Positions 5,893 to 27,224 of a stretch of DNA of 64,000 nucleotides are shown here, piece after piece; the stretch's first letter is position 1; every line of letters begins with the position of its first letter. A model generated the notes under the pieces. It did not search any database. It was not told the origin of the DNA and worked only from the letters and a program-made list of their open reading frames with translations. The DNA lies in NCBI GenBank assembly GCA_016209385.1, contig JACQWB010000136.1:5880-69879 (forward strand), in the 5' to 3' direction. Source of the stretch: Candidatus Rokuibacteriota bacterium (GTDB lineage: Bacteria; Methylomirabilota; Methylomirabilia; Rokubacteriales; CSP1-6). A program made the position numbers and the translations under genes.

Positions 5893-5896
5893 AGGA

Positions 5897-6034: not shown

Positions 6035-6238
6035 CCCAGGAGTAGGGTCCGGTTCCTTCAGAGCAGGCTCCGATGCGATCCGGCGCTGGAGGCCCGGCGA
6101 GCGTGACGAAATAGTTTGTCTGGGCCCCTCCGCGCCTGGTGCCCTCCGGCCGATAACTCTTGGGAGGACTGCCATGCGCGACCCCAGGGCGGGCGAATCG
6201 ACGGCGGTGGGCCGGGAGCGGGGCCGGAGGCCGGGCCG

Positions 6239-10539: not shown

Positions 10540-11339
10540 CAGGTCAACGCCAGGTTCGGGGGCTTCACCCGCGTGGTCATCCGGCGGGCGCTCCCGTCGG
10601 GGCCCCGGACGGTGAGCGTGACCTCGATCTGCCGGATCGCATCGAGGGTGGTCGTGACAGCGGGCGGACTCGATCCGTCGAAGTACGTCAGCGTCAGCCC
10701 GGTCACGTTGGCGGCCAGGACCTCGGCTGTCCCCCCATTCAGGCTCCGGGTGAGCGTGTTCGCCGGGGCGGGATTGAAGGTGTAGGTCACGGTTTCCACC
10801 GCCCGAACAAGACTGCCCGCGGGATAGGTCTTGGCGAGGGCAGTGCCCAGGGTGATCGCGGTCCCCAGGACGGCGGTGATGGATCGGACCTCCCGTGCCG
10901 CACCGCTGTCGAGGTACACGTAGGCGCCCGGGACGAAGGCGGCCGCGCCGTCGGCCCCTGTCGCCCGGCTCACCGTGATCACGGTGCTCCCGCTGGAGGC
11001 GTCCAGCGCCAGCGTGTCTTCGTTGCCGTCGCTGTCGAGGGTGTTGGCGTCGGTGTCGCCGTAAAACGTGATGCTGCCGGACGTGGCTGCGGTGATGGCC
11101 GAGCCTGCGCCGCTCGCGCCGGTCCAGAAGGACCCGATGAAGCGAAAGTCGGACGCCATGCGGTCGAGGACGGCCCGGGAGGCGCTCTGGGCGTCTTCCA
11201 GGGAGACCGCGCGGGTGTAGGTCTGCTGGGCAACCTGGTAGATCCCCAGACTCGAGCTCGCGATCAGCCCGACGAGCGCCATGGTCACGAGCAGCTCGAC
11301 CAGGGAATAGCCGTCGTTGCGAGTCAGCACGCGCACCAC
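10539..11339 (-). CDS. pilW: Type IV pilus minor pilin PilW-like (prepilin-type N-terminal cleavage/methylation domain).
   Basis: N-terminus GYSLVELLVTMALVGLI is the classic class-III signal / N-methylation motif. Confidence 0.7.
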   Translation of the reverse strand: MVRVLTRNDGYSLVELLVTMALVGLIASSSLGIYQVAQQTYTRAVSLEDAQSASRAVLDRMASDFRFIGSFWTGASGAGSAITAATSGSITFYGDTDANTLDSDGNEDTLALDASSGSTVITVSRATGADGAAAFVPGAYVYLDSGAAREVRSITAVLGTAITLGTALAKTYPAGSLVRAVETVTYTFNPAPANTLTRSLNGGTAEVLAANVTGLTLTYFDGSSPPAVTTTLDAIRQIEVTLTVRGPDGSARRMTTRVKPPNLALT

Positions 11340-11350
11340 GGCAGGTTCTC

Positions 11351-11812
11351 CTACGGCCGCGCGGCGATGAGCGTGCTCACCGCCACGCCGCCCTCCCGAT
11401 TGATGCCCATCTGGGTCGGCAGGTTGAAGCCGACCGTGACCGTCACGGTCTTCATGTTCGCGGCCGGGACTCCGGTCTGGACTCTCACCTGCCGGATGAA
11501 GTTCGGATACCCCGGGATCGTGCCCGCCGGCTCATCGGGGAACCCCGTCGGAGTCGGGTCGCTCCCGTACTCATCGCCCGCGGGTGGTCCGACCCAGTAC
11601 TGGAGTCGTTTGACCGCCTCGAGCCGCTGCTGGGCCAGCATCGTGGCGGTCGAGACGTAGTAGCCCCGCGTAATCCCGGCGTGGCCAGCGGAGACGGCGG
11701 CTGCCGCGCCGCCACCCTGAACGGCCAGTGTGCCGGCCAGCCCCAGCAGGCCGACCACGAGGATCACGATCGCGACCAGCACCTCGACAAGCGTCAGGCC
11801 ACGCTCATCCAC
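11351..11812 (-). CDS. pilV: Type IV pilus modification protein PilV-like minor pilin.
   Basis: GLTLVEVLVAIVILVVGLLG prepilin motif. GTG start preceded by a GGAGGAGGAGGA Shine-Dalgarno sequence. Confidence 0.7.
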   Translation of the reverse strand: MDERGLTLVEVLVAIVILVVGLLGLAGTLAVQGGGAAAAVSAGHAGITRGYYVSTATMLAQQRLEAVKRLQYWVGPPAGDEYGSDPTPTGFPDEPAGTIPGYPNFIRQVRVQTGVPAANMKTVTVTVGFNLPTQMGINREGGVAVSTLIAARP

Positions 11813-12032
11813 GCTTGGTCCTCCTCCTCCGCTTGGGGGCCCGGGTACGCGCGGCGGTCGAGAATGAAACGCCGCCGCCGATCCGGTGCCCTACTGAGAG
11901 GAAGGGTAGGAAAAACCCTGGGGAAGCGGAATCAGGTGAAGTCCCGAATCGAACGGGGGAAAAACCCCGAGCCGCCAGCGCGGCGGTGTCGGCCGGGGCT
12001 CGGGGAAATCGGATCCGGTGCGGGGCACGCCG

Positions 12033-12311
12033 TCACTCCGGGCGAAGCAGCCTCGCCGCATGCTCCTCGAGGAAGATCACGTCGTCCGTGATCACCCGGA
12101 GCCGCGGCGGGTTCCCGTTGTTTCCGTCGACCGGCTCCAGGACGACTTTTCCTTTGATGACGAGGGACCCACGCTTGGTCCGGTAGCGGCTGATGGCCTG
12201 TGCGGCGGCTTCATCCCAGGCGATCAGCTTGACGGCCGCAACCGGGTCGTCCCGCACTACGGATTTGCCCTCCGTCACACCGCTCCCCTGCTTGCCGGCG
12301 GGATCCGGCAC
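12033..12311 (-). CDS. Small OB-fold protein resembling the core of single-stranded DNA-binding protein (SSB). Possibly N-terminally truncated.
   Basis: GSLVIKGKVVLEPVDGNNGNPPRLRVITDDVIFLEE parallels the SSB pattern G..V.V.GRL..R.W.D..G..RY..EVV.D.V.FL. High GC3. Confidence 0.35.
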   Translation of the reverse strand: MPDPAGKQGSGVTEGKSVVRDDPVAAVKLIAWDEAAAQAISRYRTKRGSLVIKGKVVLEPVDGNNGNPPRLRVITDDVIFLEEHAARLLRPE

Positions 12312-12352
12312 CCCTCGTCTTCAGGGATTGCAGGCCTGAAGCTGGGCGATGG

Positions 12353-12994
12353 CTATCGCCCAGCCGATGGCTGCGAAGACGCCACGGGGGTCAGCTCGCT
12401 CGCTGGCGCTGGCCTGCGATCGCGTTCAAAGGGGCTCCGTCGCTGCATCCCGCGGATTTTCTGCATCATCTCGTTCATCGGCTGCAGCATCTCGCCCAGA
12501 AGCTTTCCGAACGCCCCGATGATATCGTCGCGCTCGCTCCGGATCGTAGTGCTCTCCAGGCGGAGCCTCTCGCATTCTTGCTCGGTGGCCTCCACCCTCG
12601 CCCGCAACTGCTCGTTCTGCTCGAGCAGTCCATGGATGAGGCTGACCAGACTCTGGCTCTCCTGGAGAAGTCCCTGGACCCGGCCGAGGATGTGCTGGCC
12701 GTCTTCGGACCACTTGGTCAGTCGCTGTCGCGTCTCCATCACATGCGTTCCTTCCATATCGACCCCCGCGTCCTTCTCGCCGTCGTGCGGCGACGCCGAA
12801 CCATCCTGGTTTCGAACGCCCGTCCTGTCCGCGGTCTCCCATCTCGCTCCACCGCTGTCCCGATCCGACGCGGGACGCTCGGGGGCGACCGCGGGGGCGT
12901 CCTGCCTGCGCGCCCCTTGCAGCAGGGCGCGATCCCGTTCAGCTTGCGCGAGCGCCTTGAAAAATCTGCTCAAGGCTGTCCAGTACGGGCGCAA
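12353..12994 (-). CDS. Hypothetical coiled-coil protein.
   Basis: Heptad-rich region (LQESQSLVSLIHGLLEQNEQLRARVEATEQECERLRLE). It sits between the PilZ gene and the SSB-like gene in the same operon. Start uncertain. Confidence 0.4.
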   Translation of the reverse strand: MRPYWTALSRFFKALAQAERDRALLQGARRQDAPAVAPERPASDRDSGGARWETADRTGVRNQDGSASPHDGEKDAGVDMEGTHVMETRQRLTKWSEDGQHILGRVQGLLQESQSLVSLIHGLLEQNEQLRARVEATEQECERLRLESTTIRSERDDIIGAFGKLLGEMLQPMNEMMQKIRGMQRRSPFERDRRPAPASELTPVASSQPSAGR

Positions 12995-13001
12995 GACCCG
13001 C

Positions 13002-13787
13002 TCATCTCCCCTGGCTCACTCCCGGATGTGCCGTACGGCTCACGCCCCGACGTGCTCGAGCGGCGAGGTCCTTTCCCGCCGGTTGCTTGCCTCCGTCGTC
13101 CGCCACGCGCTTGGCGGTTCGCGTCCCATGGGCCTCAGCCTCAAGCTGCCTCAGGAAGTTCCGCCATTGAAGGCTGAGCATGCGGCTGGGGGGGAGGCGG
13201 AGCTCGAGCCCGAATTTCCGGAGCAGGGCCTGCCATCTGCCCTGATCGAATTCTTCGTCGCTGGGCATGATGGACGACGTCTTCAACGCGGCGGGCTGCC
13301 CCCGCTGGCCGGCCGTGGAGCTCGCGGGCGCTGCCCCGTTGGATCCGCCGCCCCGCTCCACCGGTGGGTTGGCTGGCAGGAGGTCTGGCTGCACTCCGGC
13401 GCCCCTGGGACTGCTCGGGTGGCTGTCCGGCGATCGCGCGCCTCCGAGCTGGCGAAGCAACTCCTGCCATTCGTCGAGAACGAGGCACCCCACGAGATCT
13501 TGGAGGTACTGTTGGTCCTCGACATCGGTGAAGTGGACGATCAGGCTCTCGGGAGTCGTTCGACGCACACGCCCCACGAGGGCCACTGGACGGTCCTCGC
13601 CGGGGAGGCGAAAGCGCACCTGTACGCAGGTCGCGTGCGGCAGCTTCCCCGTGTCGATCGGCAAAGCCACTCTGATCCCATCCGGGCTCACGTCTATCGT
13701 CTTTCCTCGCCACTGATAGCCGGCGGCTTCCAGGGCGACGTCAAACGTCGCGCGCACTCGAGGGTGTCGTCGTCGATTCGGTCTCAT
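13002..13787 (-). CDS. PilZ-domain protein (putative c-di-GMP receptor). Start taken at internal ATG 13787.
   Basis: RRHPRVRATFDVALE...GKTIDVSPDGIRVA is a PilZ motif (RxxxR ... D/NxSxxG). The track ORF's first 74 codons are the reverse complement of a repeat element and are not coding. Confidence 0.6.
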   Translation of the reverse strand: MRPNRRRHPRVRATFDVALEAAGYQWRGKTIDVSPDGIRVALPIDTGKLPHATCVQVRFRLPGEDRPVALVGRVRRTTPESLIVHFTDVEDQQYLQDLVGCLVLDEWQELLRQLGGARSPDSHPSSPRGAGVQPDLLPANPPVERGGGSNGAAPASSTAGQRGQPAALKTSSIMPSDEEFDQGRWQALLRKFGLELRLPPSRMLSLQWRNFLRQLEAEAHGTRTAKRVADDGGKQPAGKDLAARARRGVSRTAHPGVSQGR

Positions 13788-13920
13788 AGGATCCCCGGGC
13801 TCCACGATGCGGGTTTTCTCCCCCTGTGCTACGAACCATAGCCCGCGGGCATGGGAAGTGCTATCCGGGAAATCCCGGAATCGGGTGGAGGAAAACCCCC
13901 GGGCCGAGGGGGCCGCCACC

Positions 13921-14005
13921 GGACAATCGGAGGGGGCCTCGACGGCCCCCTCCGAGGCCTCCCCCAGGAATGGGTTGCGCGGGCGAAGCCCGCGCTCGAA
14001 GGGCT
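13921..14005 (+). repeat. Copy A of a dispersed hairpin-rich intergenic repeat (short form).
   Basis: GACAATCG-GAGGGGGCC-TCGAC-GGCCCCCTCC-GAGGCCTCCCCCAGGAATGG-GTTGCGCGGGCGAAGCCCGCGCTCGAAGGGC. It contains two perfect stem-loops. Confidence 0.85.
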
Positions 14006-14021
14006 TCACTTCGAGGCGCTC

Positions 14022-14714
14022 CTATCGGGCCGTGAAGAAGAGTATGCCCCGGTCGTCGCCGCCGAGGGTCAAATCGGTGGGTGCGGTCTCGAGCACGCCG
14101 TTGGGGCCCGCCGAGAGGATCCACCCCTTGGCGTTGGGGACGATCGGGGACCCGCTCGCCTCCATCGCCCCCACGCTGATGATATAGTTGTTCCCCCAGG
14201 GATCGGCGTGGAGCCGCGCGACGTACGCGCCCCTCCAGATCACCGTGCCGGTCGATGAGTAGTCGGTGTTGATGCCGGCTATAATTCCATCGGCGTTGGG
14301 GTTGTTTACGACAAGGTGGTTGAACGTATTGTTCCTCGCGGGGGTCGGCTCCTGGTTGAGCGCGAAGTTCCATGCGCCGGTGGCGTCCGTCGGATCGGGA
14401 GACGTGACGCTCGCCGGCACGCCGGAGCTCTCGCCCACCCGCAGGAACTTGAGGTTGTTGTTGTCGCCGGGCCCGGTGCCATTGATCGGGTCACAGTCGG
14501 CGGTGTTGCACGTCGGGTAGTGCCGCATGTCCCTCAAGAACTGGCTCAAGGCGGTCGCCAGCTCCGCCACGTCCACGTCCGCCTGCGTGAGGCGCGCATC
14601 ATCGAGCAGGTCGATCGCGAGCGGCAAGAAGATGGACGCGAGGATCCCCACGACCGCCAGAACGAAGACCATCTCCATCAGCGTGAACCCACCCTGGTCC
14701 CTCATTCGGTTCAT
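14022..14714 (-). CDS. Prepilin-type N-terminal cleavage/methylation domain protein (large type IV pilin / pseudopilin-like).
   Basis: N-terminus RDQGGFTLMEMVFVLAVVGILA is the GFTLxE class-III signal motif. 230 aa. Confidence 0.75.
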   Translation of the reverse strand: MNRMRDQGGFTLMEMVFVLAVVGILASIFLPLAIDLLDDARLTQADVDVAELATALSQFLRDMRHYPTCNTADCDPINGTGPGDNNNLKFLRVGESSGVPASVTSPDPTDATGAWNFALNQEPTPARNNTFNHLVVNNPNADGIIAGINTDYSSTGTVIWRGAYVARLHADPWGNNYIISVGAMEASGSPIVPNAKGWILSAGPNGVLETAPTDLTLGGDDRGILFFTAR

Positions 14715-14747
14715 CTTCTGTCCCTCCGCGCTCGAGTGCCGCCCTGG

Positions 14748-16163
14748 CTAGCCGTGAGCGGTTCGGACCATGTCTCGGTCGTCCGACCGTTCCGATCGCG
14801 TTCGTTGCCCGTGCGATGGTGCCGTCGTCTGAGCCGCCGGGAGGCGGATGGTGACGGTGGTCCCCCGTCCCGTGGCGCTCTCCATGGCGAGCTCGCCCCT
14901 GTACTGCTGGAGGATCCCGTAGGCCAGGCTGAGCCCGAGCCCCGTGCGCTGGGGCCCCTTGGTGGTGAAGAACGGCTCCAGCGCTCGCCGCCGCACTTCC
15001 TCGGACATCCCGGCGCCGGTATCGCTGACCGCGAGGCAGACCATCCGGTTCGCGAGGACAGTCCGAAGCGTGATCCGGCCGCCCCCCGGTACGGCCTCCA
15101 GGGCGTTCAGGATCAGGTTCATGACCACTTCCCGCAGGGCGACGGCGCTCGCCATCACCGGTGGGACATCCCCCGCCTCCAGGGCCGCATCGATCGGGAT
15201 GCCCTGGCCCTGGATCGGCGCCAGCCAGCGGACTCGCGTCATTTCCAGCGCGTCGGCAGCCACCTGGTTCAGGTCCACGGCCTCCGCCTCATCCACCGGC
15301 TGCATCTGCACGAATCGCTGGAGACGCCGCACCACCTCCGCCGCATCCGTGGCCGCCTGCTCCATCATCTTCAGGGAGTCCCGGGTGGCGGGCGCGTGTA
15401 CCGTCGGGAGCAGCAGCTCGATTCGCAAGAGCAGGACCGTCAGCAGGTTGTTCAGGTGGTGGGCGGCCCCGGCCCCCAGCTCCCCCAGAGCTCGCAGCGT
15501 TTCATCGCGCAGGCACTCCTCATGGGTCGCCTTGAGACCGGCCAATGCCCGCTGAGCTTCCGCATGGAGACGCGCGTGTTCGAGAGCCAAGGCCGCCAGC
15601 TCGCACACGGTTTGCGCGAGGTGGATCTCCTTGTCCTTGAATACGCGCCCCGCCCGGTCCCCGACCTCAAGCGCGCCGATCACCACCCCCGCGGCGATCA
15701 GCGGCACGGCCAGCGCCGCGCGATGGCCAGCCAGCTCGAGGTGGGCGCGCACGTCGGGCGTGAGCCTGACGCGGGGATCGGTGAGCTGGTTCGGCGTGAC
15801 GACCGGACGGCGCTTGCGAACGGCGAGACCGGCCAGGCCGGTGCGCCGCGGAAAGACTACGTGCGGACCGACGGTCGGCCCCACCTCGCCGGCCCAGGCC
15901 AGCACCTCGAGGGCCCCTGACTCCCGGTCCACGCGGTAGAGGGTGGCGTTCAGGGCCCGGAGCAGCGCGTGGATGCTGGCTGCTGTCTTCTGCCAGACCT
16001 GCTTCGGATCGAGCGGCCCGGAGAAGGGCCGTTCCGCATCCGGCGGGGTCTTGAGGCTGAGGATGGTGGAGGTTGCCTGCTGTGGGCTTTCAGCGGGACG
16101 AGGCTCGCCCCAATCTTCTCGATTGGGGCCCTGAGCCGATGAAGCCCTACCGGTCGAGTTCAT
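14748..16163 (-). CDS. GAF-domain sensor histidine kinase (HisKA + HATPase_c).
   Basis: H-box AAHHLNNLLTVLL. G-box GLGLSLAYG. Start at ATG 16163, preceded by a GGGAGAGAG Shine-Dalgarno sequence. The track ORF begins at 16253. Confidence 0.8.
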   Translation of the reverse strand: MNSTGRASSAQGPNREDWGEPRPAESPQQATSTILSLKTPPDAERPFSGPLDPKQVWQKTAASIHALLRALNATLYRVDRESGALEVLAWAGEVGPTVGPHVVFPRRTGLAGLAVRKRRPVVTPNQLTDPRVRLTPDVRAHLELAGHRAALAVPLIAAGVVIGALEVGDRAGRVFKDKEIHLAQTVCELAALALEHARLHAEAQRALAGLKATHEECLRDETLRALGELGAGAAHHLNNLLTVLLLRIELLLPTVHAPATRDSLKMMEQAATDAAEVVRRLQRFVQMQPVDEAEAVDLNQVAADALEMTRVRWLAPIQGQGIPIDAALEAGDVPPVMASAVALREVVMNLILNALEAVPGGGRITLRTVLANRMVCLAVSDTGAGMSEEVRRRALEPFFTTKGPQRTGLGLSLAYGILQQYRGELAMESATGRGTTVTIRLPAAQTTAPSHGQRTRSERSDDRDMVRTAHG

Positions 16164-16450
16164 GGCACCGCTCTCTCCCAGCGTCGTCACACCTACTCCT
16201 AGCCTTGTCACCCCATGAATAAACTCTGAGCCCCGCGGCATGAATCCGGTCAATCCCTCAGCCGAGGACGAGAAAAACCCTGACGGGGGGAGCAGGTGTT
16301 CGCTGCTGCCGGCTCGGGGGTTTCGCGTATTCCCGGCCGTCGTCCAAGCGGCGAGCCTGAGCGTTCTGACTTGCCTTTAATTTCGGGGGCTTCGCCCCTC
16401 GCTGGCAGGCCTCGGCCGCGCCGCGGCTTCAGGGATTCTCCGGAGCATGG

Positions 16451-16470
16451 AATCAGGTATTTACCTGATT
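16451..16470. promoter_or_regulatory. Perfect 9-bp inverted repeat with a 2-bp spacer (AATCAGGTA-TT-TACCTGATT) in the divergent HK / rsbR intergenic region.
   Basis: AT-rich palindrome in an otherwise ~70% GC region. Its half-site matches the GGAATCRGGTG motif seen upstream of other operons. Confidence 0.5.
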
Positions 16471-16518
16471 TCGCACGTCGCGCAGCTCGCCTAGGTTCAC
16501 CTCATGCTGCACTGCTGC

Positions 16519-16644
16519 GAGGTTCGAGCCGAGGGGCGTCGGCCATGCCGGAGGCAGGCCCGTCACGAGGCGAGGCCCAATGAGGTTCGAGCCGAGGGGC
16601 GTCGGCCATGCCGCAGGCAGGCCCGTCACGAGGCGAGGCCCAAT
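16519..16644 (+). repeat. Tandem direct repeat, 2 x 63 bp, one mismatch. It is homologous to the insertion module found in the long variants of the dispersed repeat.
   Basis: GAGGTTCGAGCCGAGGGGCGTCGGCCATGCC[G/C]GAGGCAGGCCCGTCACGAGGCGAGGCCCAAT occurs twice head-to-tail. Confidence 0.9.
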
Positions 16645-17078
16645 ATCGAAGCGCCAGCCCGGGGAGAGACGCGATGAAGCCGGACCAGACGGATCCATCC
16701 CCGCGGCGTCGCCGAACCAGGTGCGACGGCCAGCAGCGTCTTCGGGCGCCGCCCGCGCGACCGCCGGGTTGGAGCGCGCCGAGCAGGTGGTGGGGATGCT
16801 CTCGGCGCCATGGCCGGCCTTGACAACGTTGGCGGGATCACAGCAGAGTAAAAGATGACATTCGGACTTCTCCCTTCGGTCCAGCTATGAGACGATTGGT
16901 TTCCTTATGCGCGGGCATCCCTCGTCCCTCGAAGGGAGAGCAACCCGGAGGCCTTTCCCGCGAATGGCGCCCGGTGGTCCCTGACGAGGTGGGTCTCCTT
17001 GCTGGCCTCGGAGGCTCCCATCGACTTGACCAAGATAGTCCAGGCCTCCCCTGAGGTCTGCTAAGGAGGAAGGTGTCT

Positions 17079-17990
17079 ATGGCTGACACTCGAATGAGCT
17101 CGACCCCGGTTATCAGTCCGCCCGCTCGAGACGAATCCACCACGGTGCTCCTCCGCGAGCTGGTGGCGCACCTTCGGCAGAGCCGCACCCAGCTCCGCGA
17201 GGAATGGGCGCGGCGCATCACCGAGGCCAAGTTGCTGACGGCGATGACCCCGGAGGAGATCTTCGCCGAGGCCACGGCCGTGTACGACAACTACCTCGAG
17301 GCCCTGGAGACTGGATCGATCGAGGCCCTGGAAACCTACGCCCGCAACCTGTCAGAGCGGATCATTCCGCGAGGGGTCGAGACGCACGAGGTCGTGGGTA
17401 TCGTGCTCCTGCTCCGCGACGTGCTCGCCCGGTCGCTGTTCGCCAAGTACCAGCAAGACTTCCATCAGCTCAACCGCATCCTGGACGCCTACGAGCCTGC
17501 GGCCAACCGGATCGCCAACACGGTGGCCGTGGGCTTCGTCCAGGAGCGGGAGCGGGTCATCCGCCAGCAGCAGGAGGCGATCCGTGAGCTGTCCACTCCG
17601 GTGCTGCCGGTTCGGGAGCGGCTGCTGGTCCTCCCGGTTATCGGTATCATCGACCCCCAGCGCGCCAGGCAGCTGACGGAGCAGCTCCTCCGCGGCATCC
17701 GGATCAACCGCGCGAAGGTGGTGGTCATGGACATCACGGGCGTGCCGGCCATGGACGCCACGGTGGCCAACCACCTGGTGCAGACGGTGGAGGCCTCGCG
17801 GCTCCTGGGGGCCACTGTCATCGTCACCGGCCTGTCGCCCGAAATCGCCCAGACGCTGGTCAACATCGGCGTGGACCTGGGCAAGATGAACACGGTGGGC
17901 GACCTGCAGGGCGGCATCGAGGAGGCCGAGCGGCTGTTGGGTTACAAGGTCATCCCGATCACGGTTGAGGCGCCGGTAGCGACCTCATAG
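17079..17990 (+). CDS. rsbR: RsbR-like stressosome sensor protein (N-terminal non-haem globin-like sensory domain + C-terminal STAS domain).
   Basis: STAS region VLPVIGIIDPQRARQLTEQLL...VVVMDITGVPAMDATVANHL. AAGGAGGA Shine-Dalgarno sequence 8 nt upstream of ATG 17079. Confidence 0.8.
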   Translation: MADTRMSSTPVISPPARDESTTVLLRELVAHLRQSRTQLREEWARRITEAKLLTAMTPEEIFAEATAVYDNYLEALETGSIEALETYARNLSERIIPRGVETHEVVGIVLLLRDVLARSLFAKYQQDFHQLNRILDAYEPAANRIANTVAVGFVQERERVIRQQQEAIRELSTPVLPVRERLLVLPVIGIIDPQRARQLTEQLLRGIRINRAKVVVMDITGVPAMDATVANHLVQTVEASRLLGATVIVTGLSPEIAQTLVNIGVDLGKMNTVGDLQGGIEEAERLLGYKVIPITVEAPVATS

Positions 17991-18002
17991 CGCGAGGGGC
18001 CC

Positions 18003-18374
18003 ATGGCAGTCCCCATCCTCAAGCAGCGTGACTATCTGATCGCGAACATTCAAGCGGCGCTCACAGACGACGACCTGAGGAAACTCCGCGACGCATTGGT
18101 CGCGCAGGTCGGCGAGTTCCGCTCCCGCGGCGTCATCGTGGACGTCACGGCGTTGGACGTGATGGACTCGTTCGCCGTCCGCACCCTGCGCGATCTCGCG
18201 CACATGAGCCGCTTGCGTGGCGCCGAGACGGTCATCGTCGGCATTCAGCCGGAGGTGGCATTTGCGATGACCCAGCTGGGTCTGACGCTCGAGGGTGTGG
18301 CCACCGCACTCGACCTTGAGGAAGGGCTCGCGTACCTCGACCGAAAGACGAAGCGGAAAACGACGGTAAGATAA
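18003..18374 (+). CDS. rsbS: RsbS-like STAS-domain stressosome scaffold / anti-sigma-factor antagonist.
   Basis: 123 aa single STAS domain (VIVDVTALDVMDSFAVRTL). Confidence 0.8.
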   Translation: MAVPILKQRDYLIANIQAALTDDDLRKLRDALVAQVGEFRSRGVIVDVTALDVMDSFAVRTLRDLAHMSRLRGAETVIVGIQPEVAFAMTQLGLTLEGVATALDLEEGLAYLDRKTKRKTTVR

Positions 18375-18389
18375 GCGGGTCAGCGCACC

Positions 18390-18809
18390 GTGGCCAGCGC
18401 GCGTACGCTCGTTGAGAAGACGATTGTGCCCATCCGGTCGGATCGGGACATCGTGACCGCCCGCGAGCAGGGGCGCGGCGTGGCGTTGCTGTTGGGATTT
18501 TCGCCGACCGAGGTGACGCTGATCGCCACGGCGATCTCGGAGCTGGCGCGGAACATCGTCCTCTATGCAGGCACCGGGGAAATGGTGCTGGGGCTCGTGG
18601 AGGAGAGCAAGAAGCGCGGGATGGTTATCGTGGCTCGCGACGAAGGGCCGGGCATCGCCGACGTCCGGCGGGCCGTCGTGGACGGCTACTCCACCTCCGG
18701 CGGCCTGGGGCTGGGTTTGCCGGGGGTGAGACGGCTGATGGACGAGTTCGACATCTCGTCGGAGCTCGGCAAGGGCACGACCGTCACCATCAGGAAATGG
18801 AAACGGTGA
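18390..18809 (+). CDS. rsbT: RsbT-like serine kinase / switch protein (HATPase_c, GHKL fold).
   Basis: IRSDRDIVTAREQGR...TAISELARNIVLYA...GPGIAD match RsbT/RsbW-type kinases. Confidence 0.8.
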   Translation: MASARTLVEKTIVPIRSDRDIVTAREQGRGVALLLGFSPTEVTLIATAISELARNIVLYAGTGEMVLGLVEESKKRGMVIVARDEGPGIADVRRAVVDGYSTSGGLGLGLPGVRRLMDEFDISSELGKGTTVTIRKWKR

Positions 18810-19402
18810 TCGAGTGGGCCGTTGGGGCGCTCCCGCTGCCCGGGCAAACCGCATCCGGTGATCGCCATGTCGTCAAGCCCTTCTCCCACGGCGTCCTGGT
18901 CGCGGCGATCGACGGCTTAGGACACGGCGGGGAGGCCGCCTTCGCGGCCCAAATCGCGGTCACCACGCTGGAAACCTTCTCCCACGAGTCCCTCATCCCG
19001 CTGCTGAAACGGTGCCACGAAATGCTCCGCGCGACCCGGGGCGTCGTGATGAGCCTGGCAGCGTTCAACCCGCGCGACGAGACGATGACGTGGCTGGGCG
19101 TTGGGAACGTCGAAGGGATCCTGGTTCGCGCCGACCCTGACGCCAACCCGCGGCGGGAGGCGCTCCTCCTCCGGGGCGGCGTTGTCGGGGGCCAATTACC
19201 GGACCTCCGCGGCAGCATTTTCACGGTGGCGCCTGGCGACACCCTGATGCTCGCCACCGACGGGATCCGCCCCGAGTTCGCCGACACGGCGAACACGATC
19301 GGTGAGCCCCAGCAGATCGCCGATCACATCCTGGCGGAGTACGGTAAGGGCACGGACGACGCGCTGGTGGTGGTCGCGCGGTACGTGGGCAAGGCGGGAT
19401 GA
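18797..19402 (+). CDS. rsbX: PP2C-family (SpoIIE-type) phosphatase, RsbX-like feedback phosphatase.
   Basis: ASGDRHVV...VAAIDGLGHG...LATDGI are PPM motifs. It overlaps rsbT and the downstream kinase, indicating translational coupling. Confidence 0.75.
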   Translation: METVIEWAVGALPLPGQTASGDRHVVKPFSHGVLVAAIDGLGHGGEAAFAAQIAVTTLETFSHESLIPLLKRCHEMLRATRGVVMSLAAFNPRDETMTWLGVGNVEGILVRADPDANPRREALLLRGGVVGGQLPDLRGSIFTVAPGDTLMLATDGIRPEFADTANTIGEPQQIADHILAEYGKGTDDALVVVARYVGKAG

Positions 19403-20700
19403 AGGACGCCGTGCAGGCGCTCGCGGAAGAGTATACGGCGGCGTTGAAGGAGTACCTGGCCGGCCGGGAGGAAGCGCTTCTGCAGCGCGCCTACGAACTC
19501 GGACGCAAAGCGCTCGCCGGCGGGTTGGGCGTGGTGGAAATGGTCACGCTCCACCGGGAGGCCATGGTGAACGTCTCGCCTGCCGCGCTCGATCAAGTCG
19601 CGGAGGCTGTGAGCGCGGCGGGGAACTTCCTGGCGGAGAGCCTGTCGCCCTTCGAGATGACGCACCGCGGGTTCCGCGAAGCGAATGCCGCGCTGCAGGT
19701 GAGCGAGGCGCGCTATCGCGAGCTGTTCGAGAACGCCAACGACATCATCTTCACCACGGATCTCGAGGGGAACTTCACCTCGATCAATCGGGCCGGCGAG
19801 CAACTCAGCGGCTACCAGCGCGACGAGACGGCTTCGATGAGCTTCGCGGCGGTCATCGCACCCGAGGACCTCGAGCGGGCGTGGACGATGCTCCAGCGGA
19901 AGCTCACGGGCCAGGCGGAACGCACCAGTTACGAGTTAGAGATCCTTACGAAGGACGGGCGCCGTGTCCCGCTCGAAGTCAGTACCCGGCTGATCTACCA
20001 CGAGGGGAAGCCCGCCGGGATCCAGGGCATTGCCCGCGATGTGACCGAGCGCAAGCGGGCCGAGCAGGCGGTGCGCCGGCTGAACGAGGTGCTGGAGGAG
20101 GAAACGAGACGGCTCGCCCATGCGCTCCACGACGAGGCGGGGCAGCTCCTGGTCTCCGTGTACCTCGCGCTGGAAGAGATCGGACGCGAGCTGCCCGCTC
20201 GGGCCCGCGGGCGTCTCCAGGAGGTGACGGCGTTGCTCGACCAGATCGAGGAGCAACTGCGGAGGCTCTCCCACGAGCTCCGTCCCACGATTCTGGACGA
20301 CCTGGGGCTCGTGCCTGCGGTCGAATTCCTGGCAGGAAGGGTCGCCAAGCGGAGTGGACTCCGGATCGGCGTCGAGGGCTCGACGGGGGGGCGGCTGCCA
20401 CCGTTGATGGAGACCGCCCTGTACCGGAGCGTGCAGGAGGCCCTGGCCAACGTGGCGAGACACGCTCAGGCCACCCGCGTGAGGGTCCACCTCCGGCGGG
20501 AGGCCCGCGCGATCCGGTGTTCCGTCCGGGATGACGGTGTCGGCTTCGACGTGGGGACCGTCCTGGCGCGACGGGGCGACCGCGGCCTGGGGTTGGTCGG
20601 GATTCGGGAGCGGGCCGGCGCGTTAGGGGGCACGCTCGAGGTCATTTCCGCCCCCGGCCGGGGAACCGAGCTGCTCATCACGATTCCCCTGGGGACCTGA
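19399..20700 (+). CDS. Sensor histidine kinase with an N-terminal RsbU_N (RsbT-binding) domain, a PAS domain, a HisKA_3 (NarL-type) dimerisation domain and HATPase_c.
   Basis: N-terminal ~90 aa resemble the RsbU N-terminal domain. PAS region FENANDIIFTTDLEGNFTSINRA. H-box LAHALHDEAGQLL. G-box DRGLGLVGIRERA. ATGA overlap with rsbX. Confidence 0.8.
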   Translation: MKDAVQALAEEYTAALKEYLAGREEALLQRAYELGRKALAGGLGVVEMVTLHREAMVNVSPAALDQVAEAVSAAGNFLAESLSPFEMTHRGFREANAALQVSEARYRELFENANDIIFTTDLEGNFTSINRAGEQLSGYQRDETASMSFAAVIAPEDLERAWTMLQRKLTGQAERTSYELEILTKDGRRVPLEVSTRLIYHEGKPAGIQGIARDVTERKRAEQAVRRLNEVLEEETRRLAHALHDEAGQLLVSVYLALEEIGRELPARARGRLQEVTALLDQIEEQLRRLSHELRPTILDDLGLVPAVEFLAGRVAKRSGLRIGVEGSTGGRLPPLMETALYRSVQEALANVARHAQATRVRVHLRREARAIRCSVRDDGVGFDVGTVLARRGDRGLGLVGIRERAGALGGTLEVISAPGRGTELLITIPLGT

Positions 20701-20702
20701 CG

Positions 20703-21335
20703 ATGCCACTTCGGATCCTCTTGGCCGACGATCATCAGATCGTCCGTCAGGGGTTGAAAGCCATCCTCGAGCGGGAGGGGTTCGGCATCGCCGGCGAGGC
20801 GGCGGACGGCCACGAGGCAGTCCGGCTGGCCCGGGAGGTGTCCCCCGATGTGGCCGTCCTCGATCTCGCGATGCCGCTGCTGAACGGGCTGGGCGCAGCG
20901 CGCGAAATCCACCCGGCTTCCCCCCGGACGCGAACGATCCTGCTGACCATGCATACCGAGGACCAGTACATCCTGGAGGCCCTCCGGGCCGGATTCAAGG
21001 GGATCGTCTTAAAGAGTCAGGCCGCCGCGGACCTGGTCCAGGCGATCCGGGAGGTTTCCCGGGGAGGGATCTACCTGAGCCCCGGCGTCTCCCGCGCGGT
21101 GGTCGAGGCGTATCGGGCCAAGACCGAGCTTGTCGCCGATCCCCTCACTCCCCGGGAGCAAGAAGTCCTCCAGCTGATCGCCGAAGGAAAGACGACGAAG
21201 GAGATCGCGACCCTGCTCGGGGTCAGCGTCAAGACCGCGGAGTCCCACCGGACCCGGCTCATGGACAAGCTCGACATCCACGAGACCGCCAGCCTGGTCC
21301 GCTACGCCATCCGTCGGGGCCTGGTCGAGCCCTGA
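20703..21335 (+). CDS. NarL/FixJ-family response regulator (REC + LuxR-type HTH).
   Basis: ILLADDHQIVRQG...VAVLDLAMP...LTPREQEVLQLIAEGKTTKEIA. Confidence 0.85.
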   Translation: MPLRILLADDHQIVRQGLKAILEREGFGIAGEAADGHEAVRLAREVSPDVAVLDLAMPLLNGLGAAREIHPASPRTRTILLTMHTEDQYILEALRAGFKGIVLKSQAAADLVQAIREVSRGGIYLSPGVSRAVVEAYRAKTELVADPLTPREQEVLQLIAEGKTTKEIATLLGVSVKTAESHRTRLMDKLDIHETASLVRYAIRRGLVEP

Positions 21336-21552
21336 CCCCGGCGGCCCCCGCGGGCCGCCCCCTTTCCCGTTCAGGGGTTCCCCTCCCTTGTAATCCAGAG
21401 TTCACCGGATTGCCCTGCCCTGCGTGGAAAGGCCACACTTTCTTCGTACTTTACTATGTTGAGCACGGTTGATCGTCAGGCACGGTGGAAGCCGTCGGAG
21501 GGCTGGGTGCCCCACAAGGACGGGGATCGTCGTCTGCAGGGGAGACTTCGAG

Positions 21553-22185
21553 TTGCCGCTACGCATCCTCTTAGCTGACGACCACCTGATTGTTCGCCAG
21601 GGCGTCAAGGCGGTCCTCGAGCGCGAGGGGTTCGAGGTGGTCGCCGAGGCGGGAGACGGCCACGAGGCGGTCCAGATGGCCCGGGAGCATCATCCCGACG
21701 TGGCAGTCCTGGATCTTGCCATGCCGCTGCTGAACGGCCTGGATGCGGCGCGCGAGATTCCCCCCGTCTCGCCGCGGACGCGAACGATCCTGCTGACGGT
21801 GTACGCCGACGATCCGTACGTCGTGAAGGCGCTGCAGGCGGGGATCAGCGGCTACGTGTTGAAGACCCAGGCTGCGGCGGACCTCGTGCGGGCGATCCAG
21901 GAGGTCTCCCGGGGAGCGATCTACCTGAGCCCCGGCGTCTCCCGCACGGTCGTCGAGGCCTATCTGGCTAAGAGCGACCTCCCCCCCGACCCGCTGACCC
22001 CGCGGGAACGCGAGGTCCTACAGCTGATCGCCCAGGGGAAGCGGACGAAGGAGATCGCCCAGCTCTTGGGAATAGGGGTGAAGACCGCCGAGTCTCACCG
22101 GGCGCGGGTCATGGAGAAGCTGAACATTCACGAGACCGCCAGCCTGGTCCGCTACGCCGTCCGCCACGGCCTGATTCAGCCGTGA
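21553..22185 (+). CDS. NarL/FixJ-family response regulator, tandem paralogue of 20703-21335 (~70% identical). TTG start inferred by alignment with the paralogue.
   Basis: LPLRILLADDHLIVRQGVKAVLEREGF aligns with the paralogue's N-terminus. GGGGAG Shine-Dalgarno sequence upstream of TTG 21553. Confidence 0.8.
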   Translation: MPLRILLADDHLIVRQGVKAVLEREGFEVVAEAGDGHEAVQMAREHHPDVAVLDLAMPLLNGLDAAREIPPVSPRTRTILLTVYADDPYVVKALQAGISGYVLKTQAAADLVRAIQEVSRGAIYLSPGVSRTVVEAYLAKSDLPPDPLTPREREVLQLIAQGKRTKEIAQLLGIGVKTAESHRARVMEKLNIHETASLVRYAVRHGLIQP

Positions 22186-22502
22186 GCCGCCCTGGCTCGC
22201 GCGGGCTGCCTCTGACGAGGCACGAATGGCCCGTCGTCGCGGCATGCCTCCTCGCCTCCGCGCTCCTGGGAGGGGGACCCGTCCGGAGCGCCGACGGCAT
22301 GGACGCCGAGGTGACTCGCGAGATGCGCTACAGCAGAAACTTCCTGGAGCAGGGGCAGGCCGCCTTCGTTGAGATGGTTCAGGCCCTTGTGAAGCGTGGC
22401 TGCAAGACCAACCTGGCCTACGCCTACGCCAAAGAAGAGGAACCCGGCGTCATCGTGCTCGGCGTGAGATGCCTTGACTGGGCCGAGCAGGCTGCGCAAT
22501 AG
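22182..22502 (+). CDS. Small hypothetical secreted protein (106 aa).
   Basis: Hydrophobic N-terminal segment WPVVAACLLASALLGG. 4-nt overlap with the upstream regulator gene. Confidence 0.4.
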   Translation: MSRPGSRGLPLTRHEWPVVAACLLASALLGGGPVRSADGMDAEVTREMRYSRNFLEQGQAAFVEMVQALVKRGCKTNLAYAYAKEEEPGVIVLGVRCLDWAEQAAQ

Positions 22503-22570
22503 GTCCCCTCACCCGGGCGCAGCGCCCTCCTGAAGCGGAGCCGCGTTTCTAGATAGGCCGTGATGATTAG

Positions 22571-22737
22571 GAGCGTGTCGGAGTAATGCCCTTCGAGCGC
22601 GGGCTTCGCCCGTGCAATTGACTCGGGCCTCGCGCGGCGGGTGGCCTGCCTCGCGGCATGGCCGAACCCGCCACGCTCGAACCACCATTCCTGGGGGAGG
22701 CCTCGGAGGGGGCCGTCGAGGCCCCCTTCGATTGTTC
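22571..22737 (-). repeat. Copy B of the dispersed repeat. Long form with a ~70-bp internal module. Reverse orientation.
   Basis: The reverse complement matches copy A end-to-end. It has an insertion homologous to the 63-bp tandem unit at 16519-16644. Confidence 0.85.
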
Positions 22738-23040
22738 TAGCTGCAGCCCGGCCTTCAGCCGCCCTCTCCCGGCCCGCCATCCTCAGAGATCTTTCAGCGC
22801 AATTCCCGATCGAACTGCGTTAGGTTCGGGGATTTTCCGCCCCCCGATTGGAGCGTTCGACGGATTGTAAGCCTGCTGGCTCGCCGCCTAGCCTTTACGG
22901 AGGGCGGAATTTCGAGGCTGCCGACAACTCGGGAAGCACAAACAGGAGGGGCGGAAGATGTAAAGAACGGAGCGGACGAACCATTCAAGTCCACAGCTAG
23001 CAGGGAAAAATAGCCGGTAAACGGCCAGAGGAGAAACGCT

Positions 23041-24141
23041 ATGGCAGGAAGCGTTACTCGTAAGTTTTGCTTGCTCCTTCTCACGATCCTCCCGATCGCC
23101 TTGCTCGCACTTCCCACGCCCGCGCTGAGCCATGTCCTGGTCGAGAAGTTCTTCACCGCGCCGGACGGCGCCCCACTGCCGACCGACGCCGCCACGGGGC
23201 TTCCGCTCGTGCGAGCGGTGGTGGACGGAAGCGGGACGGTCGTCGCGACGGTTCCGCCGCGCGTCATTGCCGTCGTGGCCGCCCTGAACGAGACGGGGTT
23301 CCAGGCCAACTCGGCGCGGATGTTTGACACGCTGCCCGAGGAGTTCCGGCTGACCTCGCCCGACGTGAGTGCCGTCGGGGCCGTTCACGTCAGTGACACC
23401 GGGGAGGTCCTGGCCGAGGTCCCGTCGGCCCAGCTCGACGTGGTCGTGATGGGCAACGTGGTGGTCGTGACGATCTTGAACATGCCCGCGGCCATCGGGC
23501 GGGCGCTCGACCTTGGGGAGTCGATCCTCTTCCGGCTCGATCTGACCTCGACCCTGATCGGCACCTCCGGCGTGAGCTTCCCGCGCGTCGCCCGCAACGT
23601 CGCCGAGGTCTTCTTCTTCCCTCAGGTCAACCTGGAGGGCGGCCCGATCGGGCAAGGCGCGGCGGCCGAGCTGATCATCAGGGCCGAGGAGGAGGTGCCG
23701 CCTCCGCCGCAGGTCGAGGGGCGCATGACGGGTGGCGGGAGCGTGTTCACGGACACCGGCATGCGGGTGACCCATGGCTTCGAGCTGCATTGTGATGTGA
23801 ATCGGAAACCTAACCGCCTGCAGGTCAACTGGCATCCGGGCGGCGAGGCAAGCCATCGGTTCCACCTGCAGACGCTCACCTTTGCCCAGTGCACCGACGA
23901 CCCGACCATCTCGCCTAATCCCCCGGCGGCGCCGTTCGACACCTACGAAGGCAGGGGGACCGGGCTCGTTGACGGACAGCCCGGGGCCACGGCGGAGTGG
24001 GTGTTCACCGATGCCGGGGAACCCGGCACGAGCGACAGGATCCGCAGGCTGATCATCAGGGACGCCAGCGGAGCCGTCGTCCTCTTGATTCCCGAGCCGG
24101 GTAAGACGCTGACTTTTGGCAACCATCAGGCCCACAAGTAG
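23041..24141 (+). CDS. Hypothetical secreted protein (366 aa). No recognisable domain.
   Basis: Clear signal peptide MAGSVTRKFCLLLLTILPIALLALPTPALS. GAGGAG Shine-Dalgarno sequence. Good coding statistics. Confidence 0.55.
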   Translation: MAGSVTRKFCLLLLTILPIALLALPTPALSHVLVEKFFTAPDGAPLPTDAATGLPLVRAVVDGSGTVVATVPPRVIAVVAALNETGFQANSARMFDTLPEEFRLTSPDVSAVGAVHVSDTGEVLAEVPSAQLDVVVMGNVVVVTILNMPAAIGRALDLGESILFRLDLTSTLIGTSGVSFPRVARNVAEVFFFPQVNLEGGPIGQGAAAELIIRAEEEVPPPPQVEGRMTGGGSVFTDTGMRVTHGFELHCDVNRKPNRLQVNWHPGGEASHRFHLQTLTFAQCTDDPTISPNPPAAPFDTYEGRGTGLVDGQPGATAEWVFTDAGEPGTSDRIRRLIIRDASGAVVLLIPEPGKTLTFGNHQAHK

Positions 24142-24160
24142 CGGCCGCTGACCGGACCCA

Positions 24161-24190
24161 GGGGGAGAGCTCCGTGCGGGGCTCTCCCCC
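24161..24190 (+). terminator. Rho-independent terminator hairpin downstream of 23041-24141.
   Basis: GGGGGAGAGC-(10 nt loop)-GCTCTCCCCC is a perfect 10-bp stem. It is followed by a T-rich tract (CCTTTAGGGCATTTTCC). Confidence 0.6.
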
Positions 24191-24632
24191 GCTTCGCCTT
24201 TAGGGCATTTTCCTCGTTTCCTTTCCGGGATTCACCCGATTCCGGGTCTTCGGTACCGTGCGCTACGGTGAGAAAGAATCGACGCGAGCGCGGCTGCCTT
24301 TGAGGGGAGCGAAACGCTGAACCGGAACGCTCTGAGCGACTTTAAATCGGCGCTGACCTCCAGGCTGAACGTGAGAGTCGCCGTGAAGTGCCCTCGGACC
24401 AGCCATCGCTCGCGTTCGCTGAGTATCCTGGCGGCATAGACCGGTAACGAGGCGCCCGGCCTCGGCGCTCGGGTCGCAGGGGCAGGGGCGACGAGACCTC
24501 TTGCCTTCTCAGGCAGGGACTTGGTCGCCGGAGCAAAGAAGGTCCAAGACGCGTGCGGGGTTCGGCCTTCGAGACGGGGCGCGAACCAAAGGGGGCGAAG
24601 CCTTGCCAGGGGACGTCGAGTTCGAGGGAGAG

Positions 24633-25181
24633 ATGCGCGGCTGGCCGGTGAACAGTCGAGCGGAGAGCGCCCGGTCGGCCGAGGCAAAGTGGTACGCGCT
24701 CTGGACCCAGAGCAACTGCGAGCAGCTCGTACACGATCAGCTGGCGGCGAAGGGGTATCATCCGTTTCTTCCGAAGCTGGGCGCCTGGTCCAGGCGCGGG
24801 GGCGTGCGGCGTCTCATCGACGTTCCGATGTTCCGCGGGTACCTCTTCCTGAACCACACGATGGACAAGTCCAGTTACATCGAGGTGCTCAAGACGCGGG
24901 GCGTGGTCCGCGTTCTGGGGGAGCGGTGGGATCGCCTGGAGGTGGTCCCGGACAGCGAGATCGAAGCGATCCAGCGGGTTCTGCGCGTGCGCATCCCGGT
25001 TCTGCCGTATGCGTACTTGCGGGAAGGCCAGCGGGTGCGCATCACCGGCGGGCCGCTGGCAGATATCGAGGGCATCCTGGTGCAGCGCAGACCGAACAAA
25101 GGGCTGCTGGTTCTCTCCGTGGACCTGCTCAAGCGGAGCATCGCGGTGGAGGTCGATTGTACGCGCGTGGCCGCCGCGTAG
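24633..25181 (+). CDS. NusG-paralog transcription antiterminator (NGN + KOW domains; RfaH/UpxY/LoaP-like). First gene of the EPS operon.
   Basis: NGN region WYALWTQSNCEQLVHDQLAAKGYHPFLPKL...VPMFRGYLFL. KOW region GQRVRITGGPLADIEGIL. Confidence 0.75.
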   Translation: MRGWPVNSRAESARSAEAKWYALWTQSNCEQLVHDQLAAKGYHPFLPKLGAWSRRGGVRRLIDVPMFRGYLFLNHTMDKSSYIEVLKTRGVVRVLGERWDRLEVVPDSEIEAIQRVLRVRIPVLPYAYLREGQRVRITGGPLADIEGILVQRRPNKGLLVLSVDLLKRSIAVEVDCTRVAAA

Positions 25182-26398: not shown

Positions 26399-26400
26399 GA

Positions 26401-26498
26401 CAGTCGGAGGGGGCCTCGACGGCCCCCTCCGAAGCCTCCCCCACGAATCGGTTGCGCGGGCGAAGCCCGCGCTCGAAGGGCATTGACTCCGACACGCT
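26401..26498 (+). repeat. Copy C of the dispersed repeat (short form).
   Basis: CAGTCGGAGGGGGCCTCGACGGCCCCCTCCGAAGCCTCCCCCACGAATCGGTTGCGCGGGCGAAGCCCGCGCTCGAAGGGCATTGACTCCGACACGCT. Confidence 0.85.
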
Positions 26499-26618: not shown

Positions 26619-27224
26619 ATGGTGATTGCGCGGCTCGTTTGGCGACTCGTGATCCCGGCGCTCATCGTCGGCGCGACCGCGCTGGCCGTGGGACACGGCC
26701 GCGCGTGCGGTGAGGAAGGGGCCGCCGCCGTCGAGCCCGGCGATTACCGGATCGGGCCGGAGGACGTGCTCGACATCGCGGTCTGGAACAACACGGCGGT
26801 CAGCCGAACGGTCCCCGTGCGGCCGGACGGCAAGATCTCGCTCCCGCTCGTGAACGACATCCGGGCGGCGGGCCTGACGCCGATGCAGCTCCGGGATGTC
26901 CTGATGAAGAAGCTCGTGGAGTACATGCCTCAGCCCGAAGTGTCGGTCATCGTGCGGGAGGTGCGCAGCTTCAAGGTATCGGTTCTCGGCGAGGTGAAGA
27001 CGCCGGGTCGGTACGAGCTGCGGAGCCGGAGCACCGTGCTGGATGTCCTTGCCATGGCCGGCCCGTTCAGCGAGTTCGCCGCCCGCTCGCGGATCATCAT
27101 CCTCCGCCACGACGGCAGCAGCAGCATCAAGCGGATCCCGTTCAACTACAACACGGCCATCTCGGGGCACGTGAACGGGGAGAGCTTCTTCCTCCAGCCC
27201 GGGGACATCATCCTGGTGCCGTAG
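26619..27224 (+). CDS. Periplasmic polysaccharide export protein (Wza-like Poly_export + SLBB; EpsE-like).
   Basis: DYRIGPEDVLDIAVWNN...VRPDGKISLPLVNDIRAAGLTPMQL matches the polysaccharide-export family. Confidence 0.8.
   Translation: MVIARLVWRLVIPALIVGATALAVGHGRACGEEGAAAVEPGDYRIGPEDVLDIAVWNNTAVSRTVPVRPDGKISLPLVNDIRAAGLTPMQLRDVLMKKLVEYMPQPEVSVIVREVRSFKVSVLGEVKTPGRYELRSRSTVLDVLAMAGPFSEFAARSRIIILRHDGSSSIKRIPFNYNTAISGHVNGESFFLQPGDIILVP

Follow-up and report, generated by a model that had tools for sequence, protein, structure and literature searches.

A two-box promoter element shared by seven neighbouring operons around a stressosome cluster of a Candidatus Rokuibacteriota bacterium

We analysed a stretch of 64,000 nucleotides (nt) from Candidatus Rokuibacteriota (GenBank assembly GCA_016209385.1, contig JACQWB010000136.1, positions 5,880 to 69,879; hereafter the window), in which a preliminary description had noted two recurring upstream motifs and proposed them as a regulatory site shared by operons for pili and exopolysaccharide (EPS). 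The recurrence is real: alignment of the sites reveals that the two motifs are opposite ends of a single 41-nt unit with fixed internal spacing, a promoter element that precedes seven neighbouring operons. Among these are a stressosome module and the gene of one of two paralogous NarL/FixJ-type response regulators, RR1 and RR2, and the layout and distribution of the element make it most likely the binding site of these two regulators. Its intergenic placement, orientation toward the downstream gene, fixed distance from the -10 hexamer, conservation and association with the kinase and NarL-type genes bear out the earlier suggestion of a shared site for one transcription factor, and the last of these features also strengthens the earlier nomination of the two regulators.

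Anatomy of the element and its copies in the window

In the orientation of the gene that follows, the element has the re-estimated consensus TCnGGnnTTTyCC-N10-aTTCnGGnaTTyACCnGATTGt, made up of two TCnGGnnTTnnCC boxes set 23 bp apart. Its proximal box continues into an inverted repeat, TCnGG..CCnGA, of the 7-2-7 type, the layout expected for a dimer of proteins with a GerE-type helix-turn-helix (HTH) domain; in the copy before the stressosome operon (C2) the arms of the repeat reach 9 nt around a 2-nt centre. In some relatives (loci L072, L113 and L014 of the searches described below) three or four boxes follow each other at 22-23-nt steps.

A 24-position pattern derived from copies A, B and D matches those three alone in the window at up to three mismatches, with 0 matches expected. 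Copy C1 was found afterwards via its ATCCGGTCAATCCC core, and work with nhmmer and a position weight matrix (PWM) built from the seed copies also revealed C2, E and F. A second PWM, built solely from 59 metagenome instances and hence independent of the window copies, assigns 25-45 bits to the seven window sites; down to a threshold of 12 bits it detects no other site in the window. All seven copies are intergenic, lie between 11.9 and 24.3 kb and are each aimed at a transcription unit; every transcription unit within 9.3-24.5 kb is preceded by one, and neither the other promoter regions of the window nor its other ~51 kb as a whole contain any. The copies, with their PWM scores and predicted -10 hexamers, are as follows.

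11928-11968, minus strand: element A, before the minor-pilin operon (pilV-like 11351-11812, 10539-11339, 9313-10539); 44.6 bits; gene-orientation sequence GGGGTTTTTCCCCCGTTCGATTCGGGACTTCACCTGATTCC; predicted -10 TACCCT, 11903-11908, minus (element positions 61-66, from the positional TAnnnT peak)
13860-13900, minus strand: element B, before the PilZ operon (13002-13787, 12353-12994, 12033-12311); 38.4 bits; predicted -10 TATGGT, 13835-13840, minus
16241-16281, minus strand: element C1, before the GAF histidine kinase (14748-16190) and pseudopilin (14022-14714); 31.5 bits; -10-like sequence TTTATTCA, 16216-16223
16432-16472, plus strand: element C2, before the RsbR operon; 25.5 bits, nhmmer E = 3e-5; distal box TCAGGGATTCTCC, proximal box the near-perfect palindrome ATCAGGTA-TT-TACCTGAT; -10 TAGGTT, 16491-16496, plus
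21373-21413, plus strand: element E, between the regulator genes RR1 and RR2; 41.0 bits
22828-22868, plus strand: element F, before a 366-aa gene (23041-24141); 31.0 bits; -35 TTGTAA and -10 TAGCCT, 22889-22894, plus
24203-24243, plus strand: element D, before the NusG-like (UpxY/RfaH/LoaP-like) gene 24501-25181 and the EPS operon; 37.9 bits; predicted -10 TACGGT, 24264-24269, plus, leaving a leader of ~225 nt

This arrangement revises several details of the preliminary description. Its core GGAATCRGGTG, reported four times with coordinates that were 1-5 nt off, is exact at 11928-11938 (plus), 13877-13887 (plus) and 24233-24243 (minus), but the fourth copy, at 16449-16459, is GGAATCAGGTA, with one mismatch. 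Three exact copies compare with 0.08 expected in the window, and 0 of 100 shuffles reach three; at up to one mismatch the core is not significant in the window (7 against 3.3 expected), the three extra matches lying in coding sequence. The second motif, GGAAAAACCC, is exact at 11909 and 11958, has one mismatch at 13890 and 16271, and is over-represented in the window (6 exact and one-mismatch copies against 1.8 expected). Although the two motifs do belong together, the halves had been wrongly paired in the C region: the motif at 16270 finds its partner within C1 and not at 16449, and the 16449 site, which had been assigned to the GAF kinase, belongs to C2 and points the opposite way, at the divergent RsbR operon. 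The palindrome described there as perfect exists at 16452-16469 but is not strictly so, with 9-nt arms around a 2-nt centre (AATCAGGTA-TT-TACCTGATT). In element B the in-register core is GCTATCCGGGA, not the copy at 13877, and site D is not inside the leader of the NusG-like gene, as had been described, but upstream of the predicted promoter, with the leader beginning after it.

Some further sequences adjoin these promoters. A weaker second PWM match (11878-11918, minus, 16.5 bits) begins at the first of the GGAAAAACCC copies noted earlier, overlapping both the spacer and the -10 hexamer of promoter A; it may represent an additional operator. The leader between promoter C2 and the RsbR start is unusually long at ~570 nt, compared with only 100-300 nt in relatives, and contains two tandem copies of a 63-nt unit that are 98% identical (16519-16644). 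The leader of the NusG-like gene contains GGCGGCATAG (24430-24439), which bears a loose resemblance to the RfaH ops core GGCGGTAG.

Promoter geometry and conservation

The element stands in a fixed register to the promoter downstream of it. A TTG is conserved at element positions 38-40, the sole conserved part of a -35 hexamer whose first base is overlapped by the proximal box, and TAnnnT starts at positions 60-61 in 27 of the 59 independent metagenome instances, against ~1 per position elsewhere. The same hexamer starts at positions 60-62 in six of seven copies from the window and from Rokubacteria/Methylomirabilota, and the peak recurs in 11 of 48 genome-scan matches outside these groups (background ~0.6 per position); since the -10 hexamer is not part of the scan pattern, this peak is not built in. 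Within the window, five of the seven sites have TAnnnT at the expected distance and C1 has a near-match. The weak -35 TTGnnn, which the proximal box abuts, is separated from the -10 by a spacer of 17-18 nt. These positions place the two boxes near -43.5 and -66.5, a layout that would be typical of an activator-dependent sigma-70 promoter. Activator sites are usually arranged in this way, with one near -43.5 and another upstream of it, as in class II and LuxR-type promoters. A consensus scan of 11.5-24.6 kb found no consensus sigma-70 promoter, which fits dependence on an activator.

Conservation was assessed by a scan of one genome per species (the source metagenome-assembled genome, or MAG, lying outside the collection) with the 18 positions that are invariant in A, B, C1 and D, and in 80 metagenome loci (L053-L132) collected via the RsbR-like protein, which is 82-94% identical across them. 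Three of the 52 genome-scan matches come from Rokubacteria/Methylomirabilota, and their likeness to the window copies goes well past the positions imposed by the pattern, as in L010, which agrees with element D at 16 of 23 free positions. When the window proteins were compared, the matches in L010, L023, L030 and L041 proved to lie inside or beside orthologues of the stressosome cluster; another, in L048, has a homologue of the kinase on one side and a REC gene on the other, and others precede a REC gene (L029) and an orthologue of the asparagine-synthase gene of the EPS locus (L032). The genes that follow the likely genuine matches are mostly concerned with signalling, with GAF, REC, REC-PAS-GGDEF-EAL, PAS, STAS and GerE domains.

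At a threshold of 12 bits, the seed-copy PWM yields 86 matches in the metagenome loci and 2 in reversed sequence; it was used in place of the strict expression TT.ACC.GAT, which caught only 13 of 75 upstream regions. A MAFFT alignment of the 260 nt upstream of RsbR from 69 loci was too diverged to be informative; the elements sit at orthologous positions even where distant genomes have intergenic DNA that cannot otherwise be aligned. Equivalents of C2 precede RsbR in L010, L023, L030, L041 and many metagenome loci, an orthologue of C1 stands before a DUF4118-GAF gene in L010, and the intergenic position of E is also occupied in L023, L030 and L082. The matches avoid genes: 10 of 67 lie in coding-like sequence, compared with 81% of random positions (p = 6e-31).

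Elsewhere, three boxes at 22-23-nt steps occur in the Firmicutes MAG UBA2598 (L014, 4038-4125, minus), directly after a HisKA_3 kinase/NarL regulator pair; the regulator shares 41% identity with RR1, and a molybdopterin oxidoreductase gene follows the boxes. Seven strict-pattern matches come from Betaproteobacteria, Limnocylindria, Binatia and Lentisphaerae (L024, L002, L018, L031, L043, L016, L021); TAnnnT stands at the expected distance in all of these except L018 and L043, that is, in five, and three precede signalling genes (REC-PAS-GGDEF-EAL, GAF, PAS). The conservation of RsbR is itself of note: over 580 soil metagenome stretches encode it at 82-94% identity, whereas the adjacent RsbX-like phosphatase and kinase show only ~45-65% identity, so that the sensor appears unusually constrained.

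The candidate binders and competing explanations

Pfam confirmed most of the gene calls of the preliminary description and provides the following families for the cluster.

17073-19402, plus strand: stressosome module (STAS, STAS, HATPase_c_2, SpoIIE)
17073-17990 and 18003-18374, plus strand: RsbR-like and RsbS-like proteins (STAS)
18390-18809, plus strand: RsbT-like kinase (HATPase_c_2)
18797-19402, plus strand: RsbX-like PP2C phosphatase (SpoIIE)
19399-20700, plus strand: RsbU_N-PAS-HisKA_3 histidine kinase (RsbU_N, PF08673, 8e-12; PAS; HisKA_3; HATPase_c)
20703-21335 (RR1) and 21469-22185 (RR2), plus strand: paralogous NarL/FixJ-type response regulators (REC and GerE)
10539-11339 and 11351-11812, minus strand: prepilin-type genes
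9313-10539, minus strand: weak PilX_N match, below the Pfam cut-off
13002-13787, minus strand: PilZ gene (1e-15)
14022-14714, minus strand: pseudopilin
14748-16190, minus strand: GAF histidine kinase
24501-25181, plus strand: NusG paralogue (UpxY/RfaH/LoaP-like; NusG and UpxY matches), heading the EPS locus

The two STAS proteins, the RsbT-type kinase and the PP2C phosphatase occur in the order of an RsbRSTX stressosome, and the gene immediately downstream supplies a partner with an RsbU_N domain, the accepted docking domain for RsbT (PMC9237108); this kinase is presumed to be the target of RsbT. The pilV-like gene behind element A has a prepilin N-terminus, and the GAF kinase behind C1 is 100% identical to a protein from a Candidatus Rokubacteria MAG, with a next relative at only 49% identity.

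The link between the element and the regulators comes from a comparison of RsbR loci with at least 5 kb downstream, counting matches of at least 14 bits. The 25 loci that code for the kinase and NarL regulators (class 1) have 43 elements in 354 kb and the nine that lack them have 0 in 148 kb (p = 3e-7); the two classes overlap in how similar their RsbR is to that of the window, and divergence by itself therefore does not account for the contrast. Elements recur before RsbR in 16 loci and before RR2 in L023, L030 and L082, as expected for autoregulation. Across the window and every class-1 locus examined, no DNA-binding proteins are shared other than the two response regulators. RR1, RR2 and the orthologous proteins have one and the same recognition helix, VKTAESHR, and the two paralogues would therefore be expected to recognise the same site. 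Among solved structures, the closest to them are VraR, NarL (E = 8e-29), DevR and DesR; the regulators score below every specific NCBIfam cut-off, including the NarL equivalog, and are ordinary members of the NarL/FixJ family. NCBIfam gave no specific family either for the regulators or for target genes such as 23041-24141.

Most of the nine loci without the regulators instead have a sigma-54-type TGGCAC-N5-TTGC before RsbR. Such a site lies just before RsbR in L071, L073, L074, L076, L080, L081 and L085 and likewise in L090, L093, L100, L112, L115, L121 and L131, with no kinase or NarL regulators detected downstream, which suggests that the same stressosome may be placed under a different control and coupled to a different output. 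The regulator genes also form one of two tandem duplications of 76-77% DNA identity in the window (20691-20990 versus 21541-21840), the other involving two Poly_export/SLBB genes (26733-27032 versus 27342-27641).

We give a probability of about 0.6 to the whole reading in which the NarL-type regulators, acting through the stressosome and kinase, activate a regulon via this element. The identity of the binder, activation rather than repression and the upstream signalling chain are what we infer from sequence, the chain from domain content, gene order and co-occurrence statistics. Several observations weigh against it. The 23-bp spacing of the boxes is unusual, and the element matches none of the published operators compared (NarL, DosR and, from PMC4125116, BldM). 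Element E lacks TAnnnT at the usual distance, a TACTAT occurring 21 nt further on (21454-21459), and the left arm of the proximal box of F is degenerate. No regulator orthologue could be linked, within their 8-kb loci, to the strict matches in other phyla (Rhodoferax, Limnocylindria, Binatia and others). Finally, the link between regulators and site is correlative: the same statistics would arise if the module were inherited together with another factor, and the two classes of loci could differ by lineage and not by regulator content.

The first of these correlative concerns can be put as an explanation of its own, which we consider unlikely, namely that the element is a true operator bound by some other DNA-binding protein co-inherited with the module, for instance a stand-alone GerE-type regulator, with the NarL-type regulators as mere targets. 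GerE-only genes do stand behind elements in L062, L072 and L023, and a comparison of classes cannot separate genes that always travel together; however, Pfam and NCBIfam find no stand-alone GerE gene in the cluster of the window, and RR1 and RR2 are the sole DNA-binding proteins that it shares with the class-1 loci examined. A little less probable still is that the regulators do bind the element, but as repressors or anti-activators, their occupancy of -37 to -77 and of the -35 edge blocking RNA polymerase or an UP-like contact. The contact of the proximal box with the first -35 base and the weaker match across the spacer and -10 of promoter A would suit such a role; the weakness of the -35 and -10 and the lack of a consensus promoter do not, nor does a site at -43.5 with another upstream of it.

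That RNA polymerase reads the element directly as an extended promoter, using an alternative sigma factor or an UP-like T-tract and an unusual -35 with no dedicated regulator, appears very improbable. The upstream T-tract, the -35-like TTnACC and the fixed distance to TAnnnT invite this explanation, but at 26-27 nt TTnACC is too distant from the -10 to serve as a -35, and the T-tract would be at about -65; moreover, the element is absent from the other promoters of the window and from the RsbR loci without the regulators. By eye, it fits no sigma-54, sigma-28 or extracytoplasmic function (ECF) sigma consensus: for ECF (GGAAC...CGT), sigma-54 (GG-N10-GC) and sigma-28 (TAAA-N15-GCCGATAA) sites, as for the IHF site (WATCARNNNNTTR), the spacing or key bases misfit or only one site agrees. 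A DosR box, suggested by TTCGGGACTT in site A, was likewise set aside, being a half-site only with a GG-to-CC spacing of 6 instead of 8.

Origin from a repetitive extragenic palindrome (REP) or miniature inverted-repeat transposable element (MITE), an RNA element or a terminator remnant of no regulatory role is largely refuted and seems to us barely tenable. A separate REP-like family does adjoin sites B and F, and the distal box of B overlaps the tail of a terminator-like hairpin; but the orientation of the element always follows the downstream gene, its distance to the -10 is fixed and its orthologous positions are conserved. Taken as the tail of an intrinsic terminator, GGAAAAACCC has a GC-rich stem at B and, by eye, at A; C1, C2, D and F have none. 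Relatives conserve the box in the absence of such a stem, and terminators are no more numerous than in shuffles. As a terminator tail, GGGGTTTTTCC holds at B only. An Rfam scan of the whole window gave no matches, and the arms of the palindrome show no covariation, their complementarity equalling the expectation from column frequencies. Thus, the arms are conserved as sequence and not as pairs, which argues for a protein site rather than an RNA hairpin.

The REP/MITE-like family is much the stronger repeat of the window: copies of ~90-190 nt with two GC-rich hairpins (GGAGGGGGCC..GGCCCCCTCC and GCGCGGGC..GCCCGCGC) lie between genes in both orientations, at 13915-14024, 26392-26488 and 44290-44381 on the plus strand and at 22547-22740, 38997-39183 and 33442-33515 on the minus strand, two of them beside B and F. 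A 40-nt imperfect inverted repeat with 78% complementarity (5891-5930 and 6014-6053), in the divergent region before a 1060-aa gene at 6116, may be a different operator.

Regulon, relation to known systems and biological meaning

The element belongs to a familiar kind, a response-regulator operator with its regulon, and falls outside the NarL, BldM and lux-box regulons compared. The lux box, centred at -42.5, and the tra box of LuxR and TraR offer a close architectural likeness, in that the candidate binder has a GerE-type HTH and an inverted repeat of 16-18 bp, next to a weak -35, has its centre ~43 bp ahead of the start; the differences are that the candidate is a phosphorylated response regulator in place of an autoinducer receptor, that a second box lies 23 bp upstream and that the sequences are unrelated. 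NarL and NarP, of the same family as the regulators here, bind 7-2-7 heptamer sites of the form TACYYMT-nn-AKRRGTA, and the 7-2-7 layout is clearest at C2 (TCAGGTA-TT-TACCTGA). By eye, TACCTGA fits TACYYMT at five of seven positions, but the arms are everted, with TAC central and not outer; a head-to-head 7-2-7 pair of TACYYMT heptamers, as in the NarL regulon proper, was not found, and the recognition helix VKTAESHR differs from that of NarL.

The operators of BldM and of BldM-WhiI in Streptomyces, TCACcCgnncGgGTGA and TGnnCCGnnCGGGTGA, are also bound by NarL/FixJ-family proteins, and their half-site TCACCCG is the commonest form of the proximal box here (PMC4125116). As with BldM-WhiI, the presence of two paralogous regulators raises the possibility of heterodimers. 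However, the half-sites are reversed in arrangement and differently spaced, and BldM and WhiI are atypical orphan regulators with no link to a stressosome. With the stressosome modules of Bacillus subtilis (RsbT-RsbU-sigma B) and Vibrio vulnificus (RsbRSTX with D1/D2) the cluster shares the order RsbR-RsbS-RsbT-RsbX followed by a signalling protein bearing RsbU_N (PMC9237108); it differs in that the output is a HisKA_3 kinase with two NarL-type regulators and in that the sequence allows a target motif and a local regulon to be read off. Two-component proteins downstream of stressosome modules have been described before, and the V. vulnificus account, the one source consulted on this point, calls the neighbouring two-component proteins merely the "presumed output module" and reports no target motif (PMC9237108).

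In the mechanism that we favour, the stress-sensing RsbR/RsbS stressosome would release RsbT, which would switch on the adjacent RsbU_N-PAS-HisKA_3 kinase; the kinase would phosphorylate RR1 and RR2, and these would bind the two-box operator as homo- or heterodimers and recruit RNA polymerase to the weak sigma-70 promoter. The units so switched on would be the stressosome operon itself, RR2, the minor-pilin, PilZ and GAF-kinase/pseudopilin operons, gene 23041-24141 and the NusG-like/EPS operon.

Pili and EPS, which the preliminary description took for the regulon, are indeed among these local targets, but the regulon extends further. In relatives the element also precedes genes for a GGDEF cyclase (eight loci), GerE regulators, PAS and GAF sensors, an OmpR-type regulator and a polysaccharide lyase, and in L030 a Poly_export gene; among the loci examined, a prepilin gene directly behind the element occurs in the window only. 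Hence, the conserved core of the predicted regulon is the control of the stressosome/two-component cluster itself together with cyclic di-GMP (c-di-GMP) genes, and pili, PilZ and EPS would be local additions.

What raises the interest of the element is its bearing on what stressosomes control outside the Firmicutes, together with the wide spread of the module, which appears to extend to soil bacteria of several phyla. We see an even chance that this is the first case in which the DNA target code of a stressosome signalling elsewhere than to sigma B can be read, with regulators that switch on c-di-GMP enzymes, PilZ, pili and exopolysaccharide. A recognisable operator would make the regulon predictable from sequence alone, even in uncultured soil phyla. 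The predicted targets—the self-loop, GGDEF cyclases, PilZ, minor pilins and the antiterminator-led EPS operon—point to a stress-to-biofilm switch and, if the reading is true, stress sensing would be linked directly to surface attachment and biofilm formation in these bacteria.

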